Counted from the stretch's first letter, positions 5,523-21,860 are shown. The stretch is 32,000 nucleotides of DNA from Erysipelothrix inopinata (GCF_014396165.1 NZ_CP060715.1:1-32000), one strand, 5' to 3'. The notes: a model not told the origin generated them from the letters alone. A program made the numbers and translations.

Positions 5523-6775
5523 TTATCCCTCCAATACAATCTTGTTTGGATCTGATAAGACTTGCTTTAAAGTGTCTAATGCTTGTTGTGCTTCGACACC
5601 ATCGATAATACGGTGATCAAAGGTAAATGATAATTTCATCATTGGTGCAATTTCAATTGCGAGTTCATCATTCACGAATGTATCCATTTCAATTCGAGCC
5701 GTTCCAAGGATACCTACTTCAGGTGCATTGATGATTGGAGTTGAGTAAACACCATCTTTTGATGATCCACCCACATTTGTAATGGTAAATGATCCGTTCA
5801 TCATGCTATCACGAGGTAATTTACCTGCTTCAGCAAGACGTGCATTTTCTTCAATTTCCTTGGAAATTTCAAAGAGATTCTTACGATCTGCATTCTTAAT
5901 GTTAGGAACAACAAGTCCTTGAGATGTATTGGTTGCGACACCAATATTAATAGCATCTCGGTATACAATCTCGTCAGTTTTTTCATCAACATAAGCATTA
6001 AAGATTGGGTAACGTTTTAACATCGTTACTGCAGCCTTTACAAAGTATGCAGTATAAGTAAGTCGAACATCATGTTCTTTTGCATATTCTTTGTATGCTT
6101 CACGATGTGCTACAAGTTCTGTGGCATTAAGTTTTGAAAATACAGTAACACGAGGGATGGTTGACGTAGAATGAACCATTGCTTGCATTGTAGCTTTTCG
6201 AATTGGTGTCATCTTTTCACGACGTTCTCCGCCAGTTGTTGTGATAACTGGTGCCTTTGTAGGTGTCGTTTGTTCTACAACAGGTGTTTCAGATACGACT
6301 GGATCGCCTCCACTTAGATATCCATCAATATCTTCACGCGTTACAGTGTTGTTTTTACCTGTTGCTGTAACTAAATTAATATCTACATTCTTTCGCGTGC
6401 GTATTTACGAACGGATGGAATTGCTTTTGCTTTTTGAGCTGGTTTTTCTTGTTTCGCAACTGGAACTACTGCAGCTGGTGTTTCTGGTTTTGCTTCAGGT
6501 TCCGGTGCTTTTTGAGCTTTATCAGCAGGGACTGCTCCCTCAACTTCAATTTCAAGTAATACTTGTCCTACTTTCGCCACTTCATGTTCCTCAACTAAAA
6601 GTGCCTTAACCTCTCCTGCAACAGGAGATGGTACTTCAATAGTAGTTTTGTCATTTTGGACTTCGAATAGTGGATCATCAACTTTAACGACATCTCCAAC
6701 TTTCACGTCCCAAGCGACAATTTCACTTTCGGTAATTCCTTCTCCAAGATCGGGTAGTTTAAATTTATAGATCAT
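5523..6775 (-). pseudogene. pdhC: Dihydrolipoamide acyltransferase (E2) interrupted by a single-base frameshift
   Basis: ORF 6383-6775 encodes the lipoyl domain (EVQNDKTTIEVPS), an Ala/Pro/Glu linker and the start of the subunit-binding domain (IPSVRKYARE), then hits TAG at 6383-6385. A second frame, open from 6404 downward, continues NVDINLVTATGKNNTVTREDIDGYLSGG, a linker and the catalytic domain with DHRIIDG (ORF 5523-6212). Adding one base in 6386-6404 restores a roughly 417-aa E2. Confidence 0.85.
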
Positions 6776-7766: not shown

Positions 7767-8864
7767 TTATTGATTCTCCTTTTCTTTATATATTTCATAC
7801 TGTTCTTCCAGTGCTGGTGGCATGACTTCAAACATATTCTTCAAGTAACCTGATACGGTTTGTTTTGGAACATGACGTGAGTCTTCCATTGCTTGTTTCA
7901 CTTCTTCTTGTGTTTTTTCAATGATAGCTTCTTCTTTTTCTTCTGACCAAAGACCTTTATCTGTAAGATAATTTCTCATTCGAATAAGTTGATCTTTAGG
8001 ACGCCATTTCTCAACCATTTCATCATCACGATAACGTTTTGGATCATCACTTAATGTATGCGGTCCATAGCGGAATGTAAGGAATTCAAGAAGAACTGGT
8101 CCATTACCTTCGACAGCATATTCACGAGCAGCACGTGTTGCTGCATAGACTGCGAATGGGTCCATTCCATCTACAAACAGATGAGCAATCCCAACACCCA
8201 CACCTTTTTGCGAAAGTGTTTTTGCACGTGTTTGGAATGAACGTGGCACCGAAATACCAAATCCATTATTTTGAGCGATAAAGATAACTGGTGCATCGTA
8301 AGCCCCCGCAAAGTTAATTCCTTCGTAGAAGTCACCTTGTGATGTACCACCATCTCCAATATATGTCATGGCTACATTTTTCTTATTATTTAACTTTAAT
8401 CCAAGTCCAACCCCTGCTGCTTGGATAATTTGTGCTCCAATAATAACTTGAGGTGGGAATGATTTAATTGATGAATCATAGCTGAATCCATCCGTATGTC
8501 CGTTATACCAGTTAATAGCTTTACGTGTTTCTACCCCATGACGAATCATTGGAGGCACATCACGATACGTTGGCAACAGCCAGTCGCCTTGTTCTAAGGC
8601 ATATTGTGAGATTAATTGACTTGCTTCTTGCCCTTCAGTAGGTGGTAAGTTACCAACAATTCCTTGACGGCTCAAGATACTTACACGTTTATTGTATTCG
8701 CGACCCCAAACCATGATTTCCATCATCTCTACTAATTGATCATCAGTAAGTTCAGGCATATAGTCCTTATTAACAATTTTCCCCGTTTCGTCCATTATTT
8801 GAAATGGAACTTGCTCTTTATTTGATTCTTTTACAATTTTCTTGTAGTCTATTTTTTTAGTCAT
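7767..8864 (-). CDS. pdhA: 2-oxoacid (pyruvate-type) dehydrogenase E1 alpha subunit
   Basis: The TPP motif [18 protein letters not shown]...NNGFGIS and the N-terminus ([12 protein letters not shown]...MPELTDDQL) resemble Gram-positive PdhA. I place the start at ATG 8864 (MTKKIDYKK), preceded by an AAAGGA RBS. The 16-codon upstream extension in the ORF track has no RBS. Confidence 0.9.
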
Positions 8865-12386: not shown

Positions 12387-13205
12387 TTATTCAATTCTTA
12401 TCTGAATTTCTTGGATCATTGTTTCGTCTGATTTTGAAAATGTGTAGTCAACAATGCAAAAATCGCAGATATTTCCAACAGGTTTATACCCATGTTCTGT
12501 ACACCAATCAAGGAGTACTTGATAAGATACTGTGTCGTAATAACCGCCTTTTTTGTACATACAAGCGTACTTTCCTGCAGGTAATGTACATTTTTGTGGT
12601 GCATCCAAATCGGATGACAACATGATAAACGAACCTACTTTCGATAAATAGTTCTCTGAAGAATCTGTGGGTTCCATACAAATTGTGCCATAAGGCATTT
12701 GTGAAAATATGCTCATATCGTTCAAATTACGAAGCATCTTGCGGTATGCTAACATAACTTCAACCACACTATTCTCATTTTCGCACAGTTCATACATTAC
12801 AACACGATCCTCAAAAAACTTGATACTTGGGTGGTTTAAATCCCTTTCATCGATTAAATCAGCCTCTTTATAGAACTTCAACAGGTACTCTAGGTCATGC
12901 TTTTTAGTCATATTTCGAGCTATTTCAACATTAACCTCTGTGAGTTTTTCTTTCAATTTGTCAATTAACGGTTCAAATCGTCGATCACCCAGTAGTTCCT
13001 GAATTTCTGTTAATGAAAATCCGAGATCCTTTAAGTAAATAATCTGCTTTAAATACGGAAATTGCTCTCGTACGTAATAGCGATATCCTGTTTCTTCATC
13101 GATGTGATCTGGCATAAAGAGTCCGATTCTGTCGTAGTATAATAAAGTCTTCTTGCTCAAGTTATGGAGCTTTGCGACCTCATTGATTAAAAAGTTTGTT
13201 TTCAT
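12387..13205 (-). CDS. MerR-family transcriptional regulator with C-terminal GyrI-like effector-binding domain (BmrR-like architecture)
   Basis: N-terminal MerR HTH (FLINEVAKLHNLSKKTLLYYDRIGLFMPDHIDEETGYRYY), a coiled-coil linker, then a GyrI-like C-terminus (LPAGKYACMYKKGGYYDTVSYQVLLDWCTEHGYKPVG ... IQIRIE). I place the start at ATG 13205 (MKTNF) behind an AGGTGAG RBS. The 54-codon upstream extension in the ORF track runs across a terminator and promoter. Confidence 0.88.
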   Translation of the reverse strand: MKTNFLINEVAKLHNLSKKTLLYYDRIGLFMPDHIDEETGYRYYVREQFPYLKQIIYLKDLGFSLTEIQELLGDRRFEPLIDKLKEKLTEVNVEIARNMTKKHDLEYLLKFYKEADLIDERDLNHPSIKFFEDRVVMYELCENENSVVEVMLAYRKMLRNLNDMSIFSQMPYGTICMEPTDSSENYLSKVGSFIMLSSDLDAPQKCTLPAGKYACMYKKGGYYDTVSYQVLLDWCTEHGYKPVGNICDFCIVDYTFSKSDETMIQEIQIRIE

Positions 13206-13223
13206 ATTCTCACCTATGCCTCT

Positions 13224-13251
13224 ATTATACATTTTTCCGTTACCAAGGCAA
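13224..13251 (-). promoter_or_regulatory. Candidate promoter of the MerR-family gene
   Basis: On the minus strand, TTGCCT (13251-13246), a 16-nt spacer, then TATAAT (13229-13224), immediately after the upstream terminator. Confidence 0.45.
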
Positions 13252-13275
13252 AAAAAAAGTCGCATAAGGCGACTA
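13250..13275 (-). terminator. Intrinsic terminator of the glucosaminidase / glycyl-radical mini-protein transcript
   Basis: On the minus strand, AGTCGC-cttat-GCGACT followed by T9 (plus-strand A-run 13250-13258). Confidence 0.75.
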
Positions 13276-13411
13276 CTTCGATATGTTTTCTTATGTTTGC
13301 GTCTAAAGAGATAACTATCGTAAGCTGACAATGACATTCTAACGCATTGATGCTTCATGACATCCAATATGTCATGAAAGTCATAAATAATGTTATCAAC
13401 GACACAAATTA

Positions 13412-13702
13412 TTATGAATGATGAACTCGGTCTCTTTCTTCCGAACGCTTTCCATCATTAAATCGATCTAAAGTTCCAACAAGATACCCAGTAATTCTAC
13501 GAATTCGGTCAAAGTTCTGTGCAGCAGTAGACCATTTCACATCTACATATTCTCCATCTTCCACTATTTCCAAATGAGTAATATTCTTATCTTCATGTTT
13601 CATAATTACTTCTTCACAGTAAATTTCAACATGTTTCATATCCATTCCAATTGGGTAGGATACAATAATATCTTTATATAAAGTTTCCATAAGTTCCACC
13701 AT
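13412..13702 (-). CDS. Small protein with NrdD-type (class III ribonucleotide reductase) C-terminal glycyl-radical motif
   Basis: 96 aa. The C-terminal 30 residues, FDRIRRITGYLVGTLDRFNDGKRSEERDRVHH, match the NrdD C-terminal signature R-[VI]-x-G-Y-L...[FW]N-x-GK-x-x-E-x-x-x-R-V-x-H as I remember it. It has no Zn-ribbon cysteines and no barrel. The start is uncertain: ATG 13702 or ATG 13690 (the latter has a GGTGGA RBS). Its start lies 2 nt after the stop of the upstream gene. Confidence 0.6.
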   Translation of the reverse strand: MVELMETLYKDIIVSYPIGMDMKHVEIYCEEVIMKHEDKNITHLEIVEDGEYVDVKWSTAAQNFDRIRRITGYLVGTLDRFNDGKRSEERDRVHHS

Positions 13703-13704
13703 CC

Positions 13705-14289
13705 CTATTTCTTATCATACTGATATAATTCGTAAGTTTCAATCATTTCTATGAGTTTTTCTGCATAGTTTGGGTCAGTAGCATATCCCATCGTTTGAAG
13801 AGCAAGGGCAGCTTCTTTATAATCCTTTGCATTCTTCACAGTTCTATAATACTTTGAATTGAGTAATGTTGCATGATCATCAAAGGACTCTTGGAAACTT
13901 GGATACTTCCTAAAATCATCCATGATTTCTATCCATTTATCATTTTCATATTCTTTAGTTGGTACACTCACAAACATTCCTTTGTAATCACCTTTAACCC
14001 CAAATAAGTTATTGGCGTCAATTGCAAGTTGGCTTTGACCCCAATCTGACTCTAAGATTGCTTGTGCAATCGCGATGCTAGGCAGGATTCCCATTTTCTG
14101 ATGTGACTTTTCAGCGTATGGGACCATTTCTTTAATAAACTTTTCTTGGTAAACAGGCATTTTAGGTTCCTCAGGTTGTTTACGATTTGCAACCACAACA
14201 TTTAAGAAGAGTAAAACACTAAACATAAGTAGTAAACTAAGGATTACTTGATGATCTTTTCTTTTTTTAGTTTGTTTCTTTTTTGTCAT
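13705..14289 (-). CDS. Membrane-anchored N-acetylglucosaminidase-family peptidoglycan hydrolase (LytD/FlgJ-type glucosaminidase domain)
   Basis: Basic N-terminus plus one TM segment (ILSLLLMFSVLLFLNVVV). The glucosaminidase domain shows IAIAQAILESDWGQSQLA..NNLFGVKG ... YATDPNYAEKLIEMI. I place the start at ATG 14289 (MTKKKQ) behind a GAAAGGA RBS. Confidence 0.85.
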   Translation of the reverse strand: MTKKKQTKKRKDHQVILSLLLMFSVLLFLNVVVANRKQPEEPKMPVYQEKFIKEMVPYAEKSHQKMGILPSIAIAQAILESDWGQSQLAIDANNLFGVKGDYKGMFVSVPTKEYENDKWIEIMDDFRKYPSFQESFDDHATLLNSKYYRTVKNAKDYKEAALALQTMGYATDPNYAEKLIEMIETYELYQYDKK

Positions 14290-14365
14290 AACTGAATCCT
14301 TTCTCACTCTATTATACATAAATATAAGAATAAGTAATGAAACAATACTGTAAGTTTAAGCAAGG

Positions 14366-16912: not shown

Positions 16913-17272
16913 TTACTTGAAATCTTTACCATCAAATATGATTATATCTCCTTTTTCAGGAGTATAAGTTATTGACTCAACAGTCCCATCTGTAGTATTT
17001 CTTGTCACTTTTACATCTGCATCAGGTTTACCTGCTTTTGTAGCAGTCTCTGCATCGATACTTTCACCAACTTTTGTTTCAGCAGCTACCACTGATGCGG
17101 CAGTAAACAAACTTCTTGCATCTGCTTGATTTTTAGATGTATTTGCACTTCCAATATACCCACTCATTGCTGGGATTAAGATTAGTGCTAAGATTGCTAA
17201 GATAGCAATTACAATTACCAGTTCAATTAATGTAAATCCTTTTTTATTGTTTTGTTTTTTGATTAGTTTCAT
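16913..17272 (-). CDS. pilA: Type IV major pilin (prepilin with class III signal peptide)
   Basis: MKLIKKQNNKKG|FTLIELVIVIAILAILALILIP gives a Gly-Phe cleavage site, Glu at +5 and a hydrophobic alpha-1 helix. 119-aa precursor. GAGAGGGGA RBS before ATG 17272. It starts 16 nt after the pilB stop. Confidence 0.88.
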   Translation of the reverse strand: MKLIKKQNNKKGFTLIELVIVIAILAILALILIPAMSGYIGSANTSKNQADARSLFTAASVVAAETKVGESIDAETATKAGKPDADVKVTRNTTDGTVESITYTPEKGDIIIFDGKDFK

Positions 17273-17288
17273 TTTATTTATCCCCTCT

Positions 17289-18965
17289 CTAATCATCAAT
17301 TACTACTTCACTTCCGTATAGAATCTTTTGTGCTTCTTCGACTGTTGTATCCCCTCCCTTCACAAGGCGCATGACATCATCCCTTAGAAAAGCTATGTTT
17401 CGTGAACGTGCATAGTCAACAAGCTTATGCATCGGTTCCTGCTGGGTAATGAGGTTTTGCATGGTTGCATCAATGGGTACCACTTCAAACACCGCAGTAC
17501 GGCCTGCGTAGCCTGTGTGGTTACATCGATCACAACCTTCTCCTTTAAATTGATAACTTAAGCTTGGTTCTTTTAAAGCAATCCGATCTGATTCAGACAC
17601 GGCTACTTTATGTTTACAATGGCGACAATTTTTTCGAACCAATCGTTGTGCAATAACACACTTCACGGATGAGGCAACCAAGAATGGTTCAACACCCATA
17701 TCGATAAGACGCGTTACGGATGAAAGTGCATCATTGGTATGTAAGGTTGATAATACAAAGTGACCCGTAATCGCAGCCCGAATCGCAATTGAAGCTGTCT
17801 CTGCGTCCCGAATTTCACCAACCATGATTACATCAGGATCAAGTCGTAAAATCGATCTTAGTCCCGATGAGAATGTTAACCCTGCTTTATTATTTATTGT
17901 AACTTGTGAGATACCTTCAAAGTGTTTCTCAACTGGATCTTCAATTGTGATCACACTTTTTTCTGGAGCATTAATCTCTGAGAGCATTGAATAGAGTGTT
18001 GTTGTTTTTCCACTACCTGTTGGCCCCGTAATTAATAAGATTCCGTTAGGCAATTGCATGATATCTCTGAGTTGTCTTTTAATACTGTCAGATAAATCCA
18101 GTTTATCAAGATCATAATCAATGTTCTTTTCACTTCCTAATAAACGCATAACGACCTTTTCTCCATATCCTGAAGGAATCGTTGCAACTCGCATATCAAG
18201 TTTCATTTTGGGATTATCAATGCGAAAAGCACCATCTTGAGGAATTCGTTTTTCCGCAATGTTCATGCTGGATATGATTTTTATTCTCGTAATCATTGGA
18301 TCGTGAAGTTCACGTCTAACCTTCATGAAGTCCTTAAGTTGACCGTCAATTCTAAATTTCACATTCGTATACGTTTCTTCAGGATTAATATGAATATCAC
18401 TGGCATTAACTTCATACGCATGGGTAATGATTGAATTTACTAGTTTTACAACTGGAGCAGATTCAACACGTTCAATAAGTGCTTTATCTTCTGTTGATAT
18501 TTCGATTTCTCCCAACAAATTATCATCATCAATTTTTCCATATGAATGAAGTTTATTAATGGCAGATTCGATAGCCATCGAACTTGAAACGACAAGGTTG
18601 GTGTTCATTCCCGTCATCATAGAAAGATTTTCCATAGCTTCAAAATTGAAAGGATCTGCCGATGCAAAGGTCAATGTGCCTTCTTTAATAAAAAGCGGAA
18701 CAATTTCATGTCGTTTTAAGAAAGCCTCACTAACAATATTTTGTAATTCTTGATCAACCTTTTGTGAGGGATCATCTATAAACTCTAGTCCCAATTTTCG
18801 AGTCGTAAATTTTAAGACATCAGTCTCCGTGATGTATCCATGATCAAGTAAAATATGTTCTAAAGGCTCAAATGTTTTTCTTTGTACCGACAGGACTTCA
18901 TTCAATTGATCTTTAGTAATCATCTTTTCTTCTACAAGCATTTTTCCAATATTGAAATTGTTCAT
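17289..18965 (-). CDS. pilB: Type IV pilus assembly (extension) ATPase, GspE/PilB family
   Basis: 558 aa with an N-terminal GSPII_E_N-type domain, Walker A GPTGSGKTTT, Walker B/Asp box DPDVIMVGEIRD, His box GHFVLSTLHTNDA and a tetracysteine CRHC...CDRC. GAAAGGA RBS. Confidence 0.93.
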   Translation of the reverse strand: MNNFNIGKMLVEEKMITKDQLNEVLSVQRKTFEPLEHILLDHGYITETDVLKFTTRKLGLEFIDDPSQKVDQELQNIVSEAFLKRHEIVPLFIKEGTLTFASADPFNFEAMENLSMMTGMNTNLVVSSSMAIESAINKLHSYGKIDDDNLLGEIEISTEDKALIERVESAPVVKLVNSIITHAYEVNASDIHINPEETYTNVKFRIDGQLKDFMKVRRELHDPMITRIKIISSMNIAEKRIPQDGAFRIDNPKMKLDMRVATIPSGYGEKVVMRLLGSEKNIDYDLDKLDLSDSIKRQLRDIMQLPNGILLITGPTGSGKTTTLYSMLSEINAPEKSVITIEDPVEKHFEGISQVTINNKAGLTFSSGLRSILRLDPDVIMVGEIRDAETASIAIRAAITGHFVLSTLHTNDALSSVTRLIDMGVEPFLVASSVKCVIAQRLVRKNCRHCKHKVAVSESDRIALKEPSLSYQFKGEGCDRCNHTGYAGRTAVFEVVPIDATMQNLITQQEPMHKLVDYARSRNIAFLRDDVMRLVKGGDTTVEEAQKILYGSEVVIDD

Positions 18966-18982
18966 CGAATCATCCTTTCTTT

Positions 18983-18991
18983 TGCTATAAT
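18983..18991 (+). promoter_or_regulatory. Extended -10 promoter element for pilD in the 42-bp pilB/pilD divergent gap
   Basis: TGcTATAAT at 18983-18991, 16 nt before ATG 19008. No good -35. Confidence 0.45.
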
Positions 18992-19007
18992 AGTGCTGGG
19001 TGATAAT

Positions 19008-19742
19008 ATGGGGATAACGATTTTCTGCTTTGGCCTAATCATTGGTTCCTTCTTAGGAGTCGTGATTAATCGCCTTCCACGTCATGAATCATTGGTTTAT
19101 GGACGTTCTCATTGTAATGAATGTAAACATGACCTAGGTCCAAGAGATTTAGTTCCGGTCATAAGTTATTGTTTAAGTAAAGGTACGTGTCGTTATTGTA
19201 AAACGAAGTTACCCTTGCGCTATCCGTTATTGGAACTCATCACAGCGTTTGCCTATCTTGGTGTTTCAATTACGAGTTCTACAAACATTGATTTAATCTT
19301 AAATTTAATTTTTGTATCACTGCTTATCTGCATTACTTTTATAGATATTGATACGTTTATGATATTTGATCGTTTTCATGTTCTCATTGCAATTCTTGCA
19401 ATTCTACGAATTATTACATTTAATCTTTCTTGGATAGATCACTTGATTGGCGCATTGGTCATCAGTGTTCCTTACTTAATTCTCGCCATATTGACCCAAG
19501 GTATGGGCGGTGGCGATATTAAGCTTGTTGCTGCATTAGGACTTTATCTGGGGGTAAACCCCATGTTGATGAGCTTTATGCTTACCTCCATCATTGGTGG
19601 CGTGTACGCCATTGCTCTACTTCTTACTAAGAAGAAATCAATGCAGGCGCAACTTCCATATGGACCGTTTATTTGCATTGGGGCTTACATAGCACTCGTG
19701 GCCTATCAAGACATTATTATTTGGTATTTAAGCTTTTTCTAA
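19008..19742 (+). CDS. pilD: Prepilin peptidase / N-methyltransferase (A24 family)
   Basis: The start MGITIFCFGLIIGSFLGVVINRLP is typical. Cys pairs CNEC...CRYC are present. Catalytic Asp contexts are FIDIDTFMIFD and GMGGGDIKLVAALG. The ORF-track start at 18882 would overlap the pilB start codon region, so I chose ATG 19008. Confidence 0.9.
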   Translation: MGITIFCFGLIIGSFLGVVINRLPRHESLVYGRSHCNECKHDLGPRDLVPVISYCLSKGTCRYCKTKLPLRYPLLELITAFAYLGVSITSSTNIDLILNLIFVSLLICITFIDIDTFMIFDRFHVLIAILAILRIITFNLSWIDHLIGALVISVPYLILAILTQGMGGGDIKLVAALGLYLGVNPMLMSFMLTSIIGGVYAIALLLTKKKSMQAQLPYGPFICIGAYIALVAYQDIIIWYLSFF

Positions 19743-19753
19743 CTGGATGACTT

Positions 19754-20419
19754 TCATTCAGTTTTTATTTTATCTAATGAATAAACACTAAAATTAAGGA
19801 TTCCTGAATTTCTTTGTGTATCAAGTGAAACAGATTGGAGATAGATTCGTGGCATGCTTTCTTGAATCTTAGAAATAAAATCTACCATATCATTACTATT
19901 TCCGGACACTTCGACAGTCAACGTATAGATCCATAATTCTTGTTTATTATCTGATTCACTCTCTGGTGATTCATTCTCTTTTTTAGTATTGACTGGTTGA
20001 CCATTAATCCGATCAATATTTTCCTGAAGCTGAGAGGCTTCTTTTTCTTTGATGTTTTTGTTTTTAATATCTGCAAGCAATCCATCTTGAAATCCAAGCT
20101 TATTAATCTTTAAGTTAGTTTCTGTAGCATAGTGTCGAATCTGCAAATCGTAGGTTTCAGGTTGGATTGGATCAGAAATTTTATCTAAGGAATCAATCAC
20201 TTCATTCTTAACATCTTGATGATTTTCTCGTGTTTTTTTAATATTAGGAACTGCAATCTGCATCTCCATTTCCGTGTTACGCAAGTCATCCATTTCGAGT
20301 TCAAGTGCTTCAATATCATTTTTTAGAGGATTAATTAAAAACATAACACCTCCTAAAATAATAATAATTAACGCTAATATTAAGAGTAGGATTTCTTCAC
20401 GTTTTGTAAGTTTCTTCAT
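19754..20419 (-). CDS. pilO: PilO-like type IV pilus alignment protein (bitopic, coiled coil)
   Basis: 221 aa with a short cytoplasmic N-terminus, one TM segment (ILLLILALIIIILGGVMFLI), a coiled-coil segment and a C-terminal globular part. Position is after pilM-pilN, with a 4-nt overlap with pilN. The call rests on topology and synteny only. Confidence 0.55.
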   Translation of the reverse strand: MKKLTKREEILLLILALIIIILGGVMFLINPLKNDIEALELEMDDLRNTEMEMQIAVPNIKKTRENHQDVKNEVIDSLDKISDPIQPETYDLQIRHYATETNLKINKLGFQDGLLADIKNKNIKEKEASQLQENIDRINGQPVNTKKENESPESESDNKQELWIYTLTVEVSGNSNDMVDFISKIQESMPRIYLQSVSLDTQRNSGILNFSVYSLDKIKTE

Positions 20420-20979
20420 GATTGTCCTCCCTCAATCTCTACAATAATTTGACCTTCATAACCGCCTTGGTCTGTTTTTTCTTGATATCCAGAGTAATGA
20501 ACTTTTCGTTCATATTTATCTAATTTGATATTAGAAACAAATCTTGAGAGTGCTGCCGTACTTGAACTTGAGACCCCGATCGTTAATTGATTTTGTTGGA
20601 TTGTTAGTTTATCTAAAGTCACCCCCGATGGCATCAAACTTAGATATGATTTTAATTCTTCTCCTGAAAAATCTTGGTACGAGTCTAAAGTTTCATTCAC
20701 AGAATCAATTTGCTTTAAGAAGGCACGATTCATCGTCATATCTTTGGTTAAGTTCTGATGCTCTTGATAGACTTTTTGATACTCAACATTATCTACCATC
20801 AAAAGTAACGCTTCTTTTTCAGTCATCAAGGTTCGTTTTTTGTTAAGGTTAAAAGCATACATTACGCAAATCCCAAAGACACAGAGTAGGATAATAAGCG
20901 GTTTACTATTGATACCCTTTTTATTCGTTGTTTTCTTAGTCGTTTTGGATGTTTGATATAAATTCATCTTTTTACTCAT
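20416..20979 (-). CDS. pilN: PilN-like type IV pilus alignment protein
   Basis: 187 aa. The N-terminal MNLYQ peptide resembles the PilM-binding INLLP motif. It has one TM segment (LIILLCVFGICVMYAF) and a periplasmic-type coiled coil. 4-nt overlaps with pilM and pilO. The call rests on topology and synteny. Confidence 0.6.
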   Translation of the reverse strand: MSKKMNLYQTSKTTKKTTNKKGINSKPLIILLCVFGICVMYAFNLNKKRTLMTEKEALLLMVDNVEYQKVYQEHQNLTKDMTMNRAFLKQIDSVNETLDSYQDFSGEELKSYLSLMPSGVTLDKLTIQQNQLTIGVSSSSTAALSRFVSNIKLDKYERKVHYSGYQEKTDQGGYEGQIIVEIEGGQS

Positions 20980-21860
20980 AACATGACTCCAATCGTACTA
21001 AAACAGTTATTAATTTTTAAATCGGTAACACCCAATACTTCATTCAATAATACCGCTTCACATCGTATTTGATATTCAGATTCCAAAATACGTTTCACCA
21101 CTTCAATTTTTTTAGGACTTCCTACAAGTCGTACTACAGTAACAGGACCAAGTCCCTTTTCTTTTAGGTATTGGTTCATATGTTCTAATGATTTAATAAT
21201 CATATAAACTTTATCATGCTCACTTTTTCCTCTATATCGTAGTGTGCGTAAAGATTTTAATTCACCTTTTTCAGTTAGGAAGATTCGCGTGTAGTCTTCT
21301 TGATAATCCACAAAGAGTTGCGGACTCCCTGACGTTATGAGATCCATTGATTCAATAAAATGTAGGGATGTTGCTAATGCAGTGCTTATTGTCTTAATTT
21401 TTAATTTAAGATGATGACAAACTGTAGAAATTTGATCAATTGCTTCTTTTGATATTGCGGAAGCAACAATAAACTCAGTCTTATTGCTTTTATCATGGCT
21501 CGTTCTTATGACCTGATAATCGCATATGTAGTCGAGTCCAATATTGAAATATGACATCATTTCGTTTTGTACAATCATTTTTTGTTTCTTTTTATCCACT
21601 TTAGGTATTGTCATGGTGTGCGTGAGTACCATGGCATTATCGAGCACAATTGACACTTCTTTTTCTTTAATTTGATAACCTCTGAGTAGAAATTGTAATC
21701 GCTCTTCAAATTCATCTAAATCTTTTATGTGCTTCGATTGTGGATCAATAAGGTCAAACGGTTCAGTTACAACACGATGAATTTTTTTAATTTTTGATCC
21801 TGATGTTTTCGCATGAACAATCTGAATTGATTGATCACGTAACGTAATCGCCATTGCCAT
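20976..21860 (-). CDS. pilM: PilM-like actin-fold type IV pilus assembly protein
   Basis: 294 aa, cytoplasmic. Its layout matches PilM (early beta-strands ITLRDQSIQIVHAK, then the TMTIPKVDKKKQKMIVQNEM..DYQVI block). AAGGAGGGA RBS. Position is between pilC and pilN. Confidence 0.7.
   Translation of the reverse strand: MAMAITLRDQSIQIVHAKTSGSKIKKIHRVVTEPFDLIDPQSKHIKDLDEFEERLQFLLRGYQIKEKEVSIVLDNAMVLTHTMTIPKVDKKKQKMIVQNEMMSYFNIGLDYICDYQVIRTSHDKSNKTEFIVASAISKEAIDQISTVCHHLKLKIKTISTALATSLHFIESMDLITSGSPQLFVDYQEDYTRIFLTEKGELKSLRTLRYRGKSEHDKVYMIIKSLEHMNQYLKEKGLGPVTVVRLVGSPKKIEVVKRILESEYQIRCEAVLLNEVLGVTDLKINNCFSTIGVML

Follow-up and report, generated by a model that had tools for sequence, protein, structure and literature searches.

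The described systems closest to the protein reported here are GrcA/YfiD of E. coli and Y06I of phage T4, which are small, stand-alone proteins whose C-terminus copies a loop of a glycyl radical enzyme. A 2026 review (PMC13450708) places the oxygen-induced break in glycyl radical enzymes at their radical glycine, gives spare-part proteins as known for the formate lyases only, and says that whether others exist is not known. A stretch of 32,000 nucleotides from Erysipelothrix inopinata (GCF_014396165.1, NZ_CP060715.1:1-32000; hereafter, the window) contains the gene for a likewise small and stand-alone protein of 96 amino acids, whose C-terminus copies that of NrdD, the anaerobic class III ribonucleotide reductase (RNR). 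This gene is called X or the small gene below, both in the window and in related loci, which are given by L-numbers. GrcA/YfiD serves pyruvate formate-lyase (PFL) and is the sole known repair; the small protein is a candidate spare part for the enzyme that provides anaerobes with DNA precursors. By analogy with GrcA/YfiD, it would use the activase of its parent enzyme and replace a radical domain cleaved by oxygen.

The small protein also differs from these systems. Its N-terminal part is predicted with confidence and its radical segment with low confidence, whereas the N-terminus of YfiD is disordered (PMC13450708). It is not homologous to GrcA/YfiD, having no PF01228 (IPR011140) and matching NRDD instead, and its target would be class III RNR rather than PFL. 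Natural hosts with a genetically truncated target NrdD were seen, and to our knowledge no such case has been reported for PFL. Compared with the C-terminal radical domain of NrdD (8p23, 1h78), residues 60-96 of the small protein are a near-exact copy, and 32 residues are identical in one locus (L017). The differences from NrdD are the missing barrel, ATP cone and zinc (Zn)-ribbon cysteines, an unrelated N-terminal domain and a separate gene. In class I RNR, the small subunit NrdB/NrdF stores the radical, and NrdA of Aeromonas phage Aeh1 is split ("genes-in-pieces"). Loci with a split NrdD are similar in that the barrel and the radical element are separate polypeptides that would assemble. However, the NrdD-type radical is a glycyl radical that depends on a radical S-adenosylmethionine (SAM) activase, while the class I radical is a tyrosyl radical derived from a metallo-cofactor; there is no sequence or fold relation, and the NrdD split does not come from a homing endonuclease or an intein. 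The principle of an autonomous glycyl radical cofactor is therefore rated as known, and its use by class III RNR, the dedicated N-terminal domain and a natural two-component NrdD are rated as new.

Two sources, one of them PMC13450708, state that no spare part is known outside PFL. The first-pass annotation of the window, which was made from the sequence alone, had held that an equivalent for class III RNR is not an established system, in agreement with that 2026 review. Full-text searches of a literature library for spare-part or autonomous glycyl-radical proteins with RNR gave no description of such a protein, and the matched passages of RNR-family surveys on the glycyl radical domain contain no split form. 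Papers that treat both Erysipelothrix and NrdD were searched for as well, with no result.

A radical segment joined to a family-specific domain

The open reading frame (ORF) in the window has an ATG start, 96 codons and the C-terminus ...NFDRIRRITGYLVGTLDRFNDGKRSEERDRVHHS. An ORF of this length with an NrdD-type C-terminal motif had been reported at this place with no strand stated; the strand is minus, and Pfam, NCBIfam, PDB and profile-profile matches all bear out the motif. The NrdD models used to test membership were PF13597, TIGR02487 and NF005497. The Pfam family NRDD (PF13597) matches residues 62-95 with profile positions 531-562 of 562 (E = 1.4e-7), scoring 31 bits against a gathering score of 26.2 bits. 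A search with Gly_radical (PF01228) had been proposed alongside it, and this family gave no match to the window protein in a Pfam scan at E <= 10. With the NrdD equivalogs of NCBIfam, the match is confined to residues 60-96 and to the final ~37 positions of the models, with 28-44 bits where the whole-protein cut-offs are 326-764. Residues 701-738 of a 743-residue NrdD (PDB 8p23) align to residues 58-95, and profile-profile comparison with clostridial NrdD C-termini gave a probability of 99.7%, again for residues 60-96 only.

This segment reproduces almost exactly how clostridial NrdDs end, R-I-x-G-Y-L ... [FW]N-x-[GA]K-x-x-E-x-x-x-R-V-x-H, and the NrdD C-terminal motif RxxGY plus [FW]NxGKxxExxxRxxH is present as RRITGYLVGTLDRFNDGKRSEERDRVHH. 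Gly72 was correctly picked out as the glycine of the radical motif: it lies in RRITGY, with 24 residues C-terminal to it. The rest of NrdD is missing, as first described. There was no match to full-length NrdD with its ten-stranded barrel and catalytic cysteine, the barrel and ATP cone are absent, and in place of the Zn ribbon, with its four cysteines before the radical glycine, the sole cysteine before the motif is C29.

The first description had placed its emphasis on the C-terminus only. That match stands, and the first ~58 residues prove to be a conserved family-specific domain, not filler. AlphaFold2 gave residues 1-60 block-mean pLDDT (predicted local distance difference test) values of 81-88 and a beta-beta-alpha-beta-beta fold. 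The values for the radical segment were 52-56, which is what one would expect if it folds on binding only. G50 does not vary in two family alignments, where conservation of Y28, D49, V53 and D54 is at least 90%; the window protein has the conserved hairpin D49-G50-x-x-V53-D54 (DGxxVD) that marks the family. The domain belongs to no Pfam family, a Foldseek comparison of the AlphaFold2 model with PDB gave no usable match (best E-value 0.5), and the only matches in a profile search of PDB sequences were NrdD C-termini. A BLASTP hint had suggested that the domain corresponds to the final beta-alpha-beta unit of the NrdD barrel, from which the Zn ribbon had been lost. This was rejected, since hhalign of residues 1-58 against the NrdD region ahead of the motif gave a probability of 0.7%.

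More than 7,900 matches were found among 5.8 billion proteins, and the best 120 are all 79-117 residues long. An exhaustive search of 50%-identity representatives gave 199 at E <= 1e-10, nearly all small. With one genome per GTDB species, the motif pattern occurs in at least 596 loci, small proteins and full-length NrdDs together, and 79 of the best 80 of these are small proteins. The family is spread over Clostridia, Erysipelotrichaceae and Coriobacteriia, with hosts in Ruminococcus and other Oscillospiraceae, Christensenellales, Erysipelotrichaceae, Eubacteriaceae, Lachnospiraceae and Coriobacteriia. The conservation of Gly72, which the first-pass annotation had wanted checked, is complete: all 387 small members examined (387/387; median length 93 residues) carry [R/K]xRRxTGY with its glycine. 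The family radical motif [R/K]xRRxTGYLVG, which the window protein has, lies ~29 residues from the C-terminus. The number of residues after it ranges over 25-75 in the family, a count that begins one residue earlier than the count of 24 for Gly72. There is no cysteine in the 60 residues ahead of the motif in 317/382 members, and the window protein fits the typical family length of ~85-100 residues. Pfam and NCBIfam release 20 hold no model for the small family, and source databases label its members "hypothetical protein" or, misleadingly, "anaerobic ribonucleoside-triphosphate reductase".

The best match, at 91% identity and with the gene order of the window, is from the Erysipelothrix metagenome-assembled genome JAVWLP01 (L014). 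The two genes differ by 15 synonymous and 9 non-synonymous codon changes, none inside RRITGYLVGTLDRFNDGK. No nrd genes were seen at L014, which merely repeats the synteny of the window, and none were found when the NrdD of this lineage was sought through the P0001 and P0002 contigs (1-4 kb). By the conservation of its sequences, this is a large unnamed family, real and constrained. The early view that the gene is no simple remnant is upheld by hundreds of members of constant size with their own N-terminal domain.

Two minor points concern family members. Short Cys-rich tails (ECNCD, ECSCAEF, SCGCEACH) follow RVKH in some small proteins and in the NrdDs of L017 and L101; examples are the 4669 and 4983 ends of L017, L101, P0029, P0093, L064, L065, L084, L085 and L092. 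The window protein has no such tail. L078 was rejected as a small-protein locus, being a full-length nrdD-nrdG in a high-GC genome.

Neighbours of the small gene in related genomes

In several loci, NrdD stops before its radical glycine and X follows. The NrdD of L060 ends in ...GFERIPRIIASAGA with no glycine, and after a clean stop come an AT-rich spacer, a strong ribosome-binding site (RBS), X and nrdG. L060, L099 and L100 share an NrdD that ends in ...FERIRRIT plus a few residues, then X and nrdG, and in the latter two the order is phosphorylase-amylase-NrdD(753 residues, truncated)-X-nrdG. The syntenic loci L102 and L103 have an intact NrdD of 781 residues with nrdG directly after it and no X. 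NrdD(no glycine)-X-nrdG was also found on three IMG/VR contigs (L168, L173, L183), with the X frame overlapping the NrdD stop in two, and on a metagenome contig (L247); in these four the NrdD tail past the Zn ribbon has diverged and the motif is missing. A truncated NrdD and an X-nrdG pair also occur 29 kb apart on one contig of 3.7 Mb.

The motif is missing from 18 of the 120 database NrdDs nearest to the L060 protein, and most of these 18 stop a few residues from ...RRIT. In a neighbour-joining tree, drawn without support values, the truncated NrdDs form six runs interspersed among intact ones, and several independent truncations are likely. The truncated lineages have a ratio of non-synonymous to synonymous substitution rates (dN/dS) of ~0.02, with dS saturated. 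They keep 401/472 invariant columns and 8/8 cysteines that are invariant in intact relatives, including the Zn-ribbon cysteines and that of MGCRTR, which we take to be the catalytic finger-loop cysteine. Judged by these values, the truncated NrdDs are working genes under strong purifying selection. They are easily mistaken for pseudogenes or annotated as complete enzymes. An assembly artefact at L060 was rejected as a general explanation, given 18 database proteins from many assemblies and contigs of 3.7 Mb.

Oxygen cleaves the NrdD of E. coli at Gly681. The natural truncations in the clade nearest L060 end just ahead of the radical glycine, and because this is the point of oxygen cleavage, these hosts live with an NrdD that resembles the cleaved product, plus X. 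A truncated NrdD together with X amounts to a natural complementation experiment, and on sequence grounds implies an ability of X to provide the radical loop in trans. The overlap is like that of GrcA/YfiD, since the truncated NrdDs keep FERIRRIT, which is also in X, and cleaved PFL keeps the strand duplicated in YfiD (PMC13450708).

Two other loci, L017 and L101, have the operon order nrdD(intact)-X-nrdG-nrdR. In L017, NrdD and X share all of the 32 residues FERIRRITGYLVGTVDRFNNGKRAEEHDRVKH, which begin with FERIRRITGY and end with RVKH, down to a GTV variant that is less common. Their DNA has ~9 synonymous and 0 non-synonymous differences, from which we conclude that selection, and not recent duplication, keeps both to one peptide. 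X, NrdD and NrdG were seen together in L017, L060, L095+L098, L099, L101, L168, L173, L183 and L247, and nrdG comes directly after X in L098, L200, L232 and L252.

Genes of oxygen stress are another setting. In Ruminococcus, a rubrerythrin gene lies 52 bp downstream of X, and X is divergent from a Crp/Fnr-type regulator gene; in Ornithoclostridium a flavodiiron protein comes after X, again with a divergent Crp/Fnr regulator. Among species representatives, rubrerythrin is the next downstream gene in 10/74 loci, and a divergent cyclic nucleotide-binding (Crp/Fnr-type) regulator is the upstream gene in 8/77. In 11/79 loci, the palindrome TGTTGCAnnTGCAACA is found at 69-160 bp upstream of X, out of only 15 such sites (one mismatch allowed) in 1.23 Mb. 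At the palindrome loci of Table 1, it is located between the small gene and a divergent regulator gene of the Crp/Fnr family. In the Ruminococcus loci it is ~41 bp upstream of a TATGATACAAT -10 element, which is the geometry of class II Crp/Fnr activation. From its sequence and position, TGTTGCAnnTGCAACA is probably the operator of the adjacent Crp/Fnr-family regulator. We take it to resemble the half-sites of the nitric-oxide-sensing HcpR, a lead and not a test. In E. coli, grcA and nrdDG are both activated by FNR, and so a Crp/Fnr context fits a spare part and a standing subunit of NrdD alike. At positions +/-2 in the 79 loci, no gene family recurs beyond lineage synteny. The SAM synthetase gene (metK) is next downstream in 5/74 loci (for example L020, L030, L032, L057 and L072); this adjacency may be meaningful, as the activase uses SAM as its co-substrate, or may reflect synteny within lineages.

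At least 573 confirmed matches came from a scan of IMG/VR. Some copies of the small gene are on phage-like or viral contigs, a likeness to Y06I, and the gene may travel horizontally as Y06I of T4 does. In a tblastn search of GenBank phages, the small form was found only on two short unannotated faecal contigs, and the other matches were the C-termini of full-length nrdD. In one subfamily (L104-L107; P0424, with the small gene of L104 at 6001-6282), many short ORFs that have no known domain surround the gene, and an IS605 element, a HicA/HicB toxin-antitoxin pair and an fn3 protein are next to it, a setting that looks like a prophage or mobile element.

Proposed mechanism and rival explanations

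Homology to NrdD, conservation across the family, operon links and complementary truncations are what was observed. They point to an autonomous glycyl-radical module that works in trans with the NrdD core and is activated by NrdG, which we consider quite probable. We infer that the radical is installed on the small protein, which docks and rescues NrdD. The radical-SAM activase NrdG would abstract a hydrogen from Gly72. The last 37 residues of the small protein, a flexible stretch that copies the radical loop and terminal helix of NrdD, would then enter an NrdD barrel without a loop of its own, where the glycyl radical would produce the thiyl radical that catalyses ribonucleotide reduction. 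Docking, solubility or NrdG recognition could be the role of the folded N-terminal domain (residues 1-58).

Several results weigh against a module for NrdD. The small gene is unlinked to nrd genes in 77/79 GTDB loci. A tblastn search found no nrdD or nrdG within the 32-kb window, where the neighbours, a glucosaminidase gene and a MerR-family regulator gene, are not among the informative ones. The Ruminococcus Crp/Fnr palindrome matches the window only with 1-2 mismatches, at about the number expected from shuffles, and none of these matches is placed where a promoter of the small gene would be. Several key loci are metagenome assemblies. Finally, one group of operons (L096, L097, L108-L113) has nrdG immediately behind a truncated nrdD and no X in the neighbourhood.

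The gene arrangements present X in two modes. In the first, NrdD is intact (L017, L101) and X beside it would be redundant, a spare radical domain, which fits the repair of an NrdD that oxygen has cleaved at the glycine. In the second, found in at least six lineages, X would be the sole radical domain, beside an NrdD truncated before the glycine. The first-pass annotation had proposed a spare part like GrcA. Of this, a trans module for class III RNR is strongly supported by the operons, the truncated NrdDs and the glycine present in 387/387; the rescue of oxygen-cleaved NrdD is one of two modes, as many genomes seemingly have the small protein as their sole radical domain. For the organism of the window, we lean slightly towards the spare-part mode over that of an obligate subunit. 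The window encodes a 2-oxoacid dehydrogenase complex, which, taken with the physiology of Erysipelothrix, suggests a lifestyle that meets oxygen.

The foremost alternative keeps this trans mechanism and differs in the biological role alone. The resident NrdD would be truncated, and the small protein, as its sole radical domain, would be needed for all class III RNR activity. Truncated NrdDs beside X (L060, L099/L100, L095+L098, L168, L173, L183, L247) do exceed intact ones (L017, L101), and one syntenic clade has X with truncated NrdD and lacks it with intact NrdD. Since truncated NrdD-nrdG operons without an adjacent X occur, an unlinked X could still be obligate. However, X is kept beside intact NrdD in L017 and L101, and the purely synonymous differences in L017 indicate a selected role there anyway. 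The genes around X in Ruminococcus and its relatives are those of oxygen detoxification and not nrd genes, and the sample of visible pairs is biased to operon-linked cases. We regard an obligate subunit in the window organism as possible and rather doubtful.

Another possible explanation is a decoy or regulator that mimics the substrate of NrdG, titrating or storing its activity or holding a radical, and never completes the NrdD site. The radical segment does mimic this substrate exactly, X is often beside nrdG alone, and its N-terminal domain is unrelated to NrdD. This would leave unexplained why glycine-less NrdDs with dN/dS ~0.02, intact catalytic cysteines and an adjacent nrdG exist, and why the truncations end just ahead of the segment that X carries, making a decoy improbable. 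A displaced 3' end of a disrupted nrdD or an annotation artefact, which the NrdD match of only ~37 residues and the public protein names might suggest, is effectively refuted by the family-wide conservation in size, N-terminal domain and radical motif among hundreds of diverged members, and also has against it the 15 synonymous and 9 non-synonymous changes to the orthologue, with none in the core motif, and the absence by tblastn of NrdD-like sequence beside the window gene.

On the reading of X as a trans module for NrdD, we are moderately confident of a broader picture, in which the small protein is a widespread, exchangeable radical subunit of class III RNR and the first glycyl-radical spare part outside the formate lyases. 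It would have taken over the function in several lineages, apparently more than once, giving a two-component class III RNR with barrel and radical element on separate polypeptides. The phage-like contexts and, in Ruminococcus, a Crp/Fnr-controlled oxygen- or nitric-oxide-stress unit belong to this picture and share that moderate confidence. If true, it would explain how strict and facultative anaerobes of gut and rumen restart DNA synthesis after oxygen, and class III RNR would gain an architecture of two subunits. The annotation of small proteins now called "hypothetical" or "anaerobic ribonucleoside-triphosphate reductase" would be fixed, and glycine-less nrdD genes would no longer be read as pseudogenes. 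Truncated NrdD cores, small partners and activases are encoded side by side in several genomes, which makes them ready reagents for a test.

The locus in the window

The features of the window are given in Table 1, with the palindrome and glycine-less NrdD loci. The small gene had been said to adjoin the upstream glucosaminidase gene, and so it does: the glucosaminidase stop is 2 nt ahead of the small-gene ATG. The arrangement is repeated in L014, and the small gene is probably co-transcribed with this cell-wall hydrolase gene. The RBS, called plausible at first, is weaker than claimed. The Shine-Dalgarno match for Met1 is poor, and GGTGGA lies 4 nt ahead of the ATG of Met5. Both Met1 and Met5 are present in the L014 orthologue, and most homologues begin near Met5. 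The claim of the gene's own terminator held in part: a hairpin with a T9 run is present, but it starts 138 nt past the stop and not directly after it. In the small-gene region, a consensus scan found promoter-like sites at a count not above that of shuffles.

Table 1. Positions of features in the window and in related loci
Feature	Position	Strand	Basis
CDS of 96-residue stand-alone NrdD-type glycyl-radical protein	13412..13702	-	ORF list, stop included
N-terminal family-specific domain, residues 1-58	13529..13702	-	AlphaFold2, conserved columns
NrdD-homologous glycyl-radical segment, residues 60-96 (FDRIRRITGYLVGTLDRFNDGKRSEERDRVHH)	13415..13525	-	Pfam, NCBIfam, PDB, hhalign matches
Gly72 codon, predicted radical glycine	13487..13489	- (+ strand ccc)	direct sequence reading
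Alternative start codon Met5, preceded by GGTGGA	13688..13690	-	sequence; Met5 kept in L014 orthologue
Upstream glucosaminidase gene	13705..14319	-	Pfam Glucosaminidase, E = 2e-40
Promoter-like TTGAAA-17-TATGAT, within 3' end of glucosaminidase gene	13714..13742	-	consensus scan, 10/12
Terminator-like hairpin AGTCGC-cttat-GCGACT + T9 run	13250..13274	-	scan and sequence
Perfect 10-bp inverted repeat TTCATGACAT-N5-ATGTCATGAA	13354..13378	.	repeat search; 3' untranslated stretch
Palindrome TGTTGCAnnTGCAACA, L005	~7900-7990		
Palindrome TGTTGCAnnTGCAACA, L010, L019, L021-L023, L026, L042, L046, L048, L051, L061, L070			
Glycine-less NrdD gene, L060	5627-7846		
Glycine-less NrdD gene, L095	5001-7262		
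Glycine-less NrdD gene, L099	3689-5950		
Glycine-less NrdD gene, L096	5001-7295		
Glycine-less NrdD proteins P0271, P0272, P0275, P0279-P0282, P0285, P0292, P0295, P0325, P0374-P0376, P0382, P0383			

The inverted repeat lies between the small-gene stop and the terminator, upstream of the MerR-family gene, and could be an operator or an RNA hairpin. The MerR-family regulator gene is the next gene downstream and has its own promoter, with its real start at 13205. The listed ORF (12387-13367, minus strand) has a TTG start and is over-extended, its helix-turn-helix beginning at residue 61; the ATG at 13205, with an AGGTGAG RBS and a promoter-like TTGCCT-16-TATAAT, is a better fit.

The E2 component of the 2-oxoacid dehydrogenase complex is in two minus-strand ORFs ~170 bp apart (5523-6212 and 6383-6775), the pieces being a lipoyl domain of 130 residues and a catalytic domain of 229 residues. 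This could be a frameshift, a low-complexity linker that breaks the ORF listing, or a real split. A cluster like those of type IV pili or competence lies at 16913-21860 on the minus strand, with a prepilin that has an N-terminal methylation motif (16913-17299), a T2SSE ATPase (17289-18965) and a T2SSM-like protein (19754-20419).

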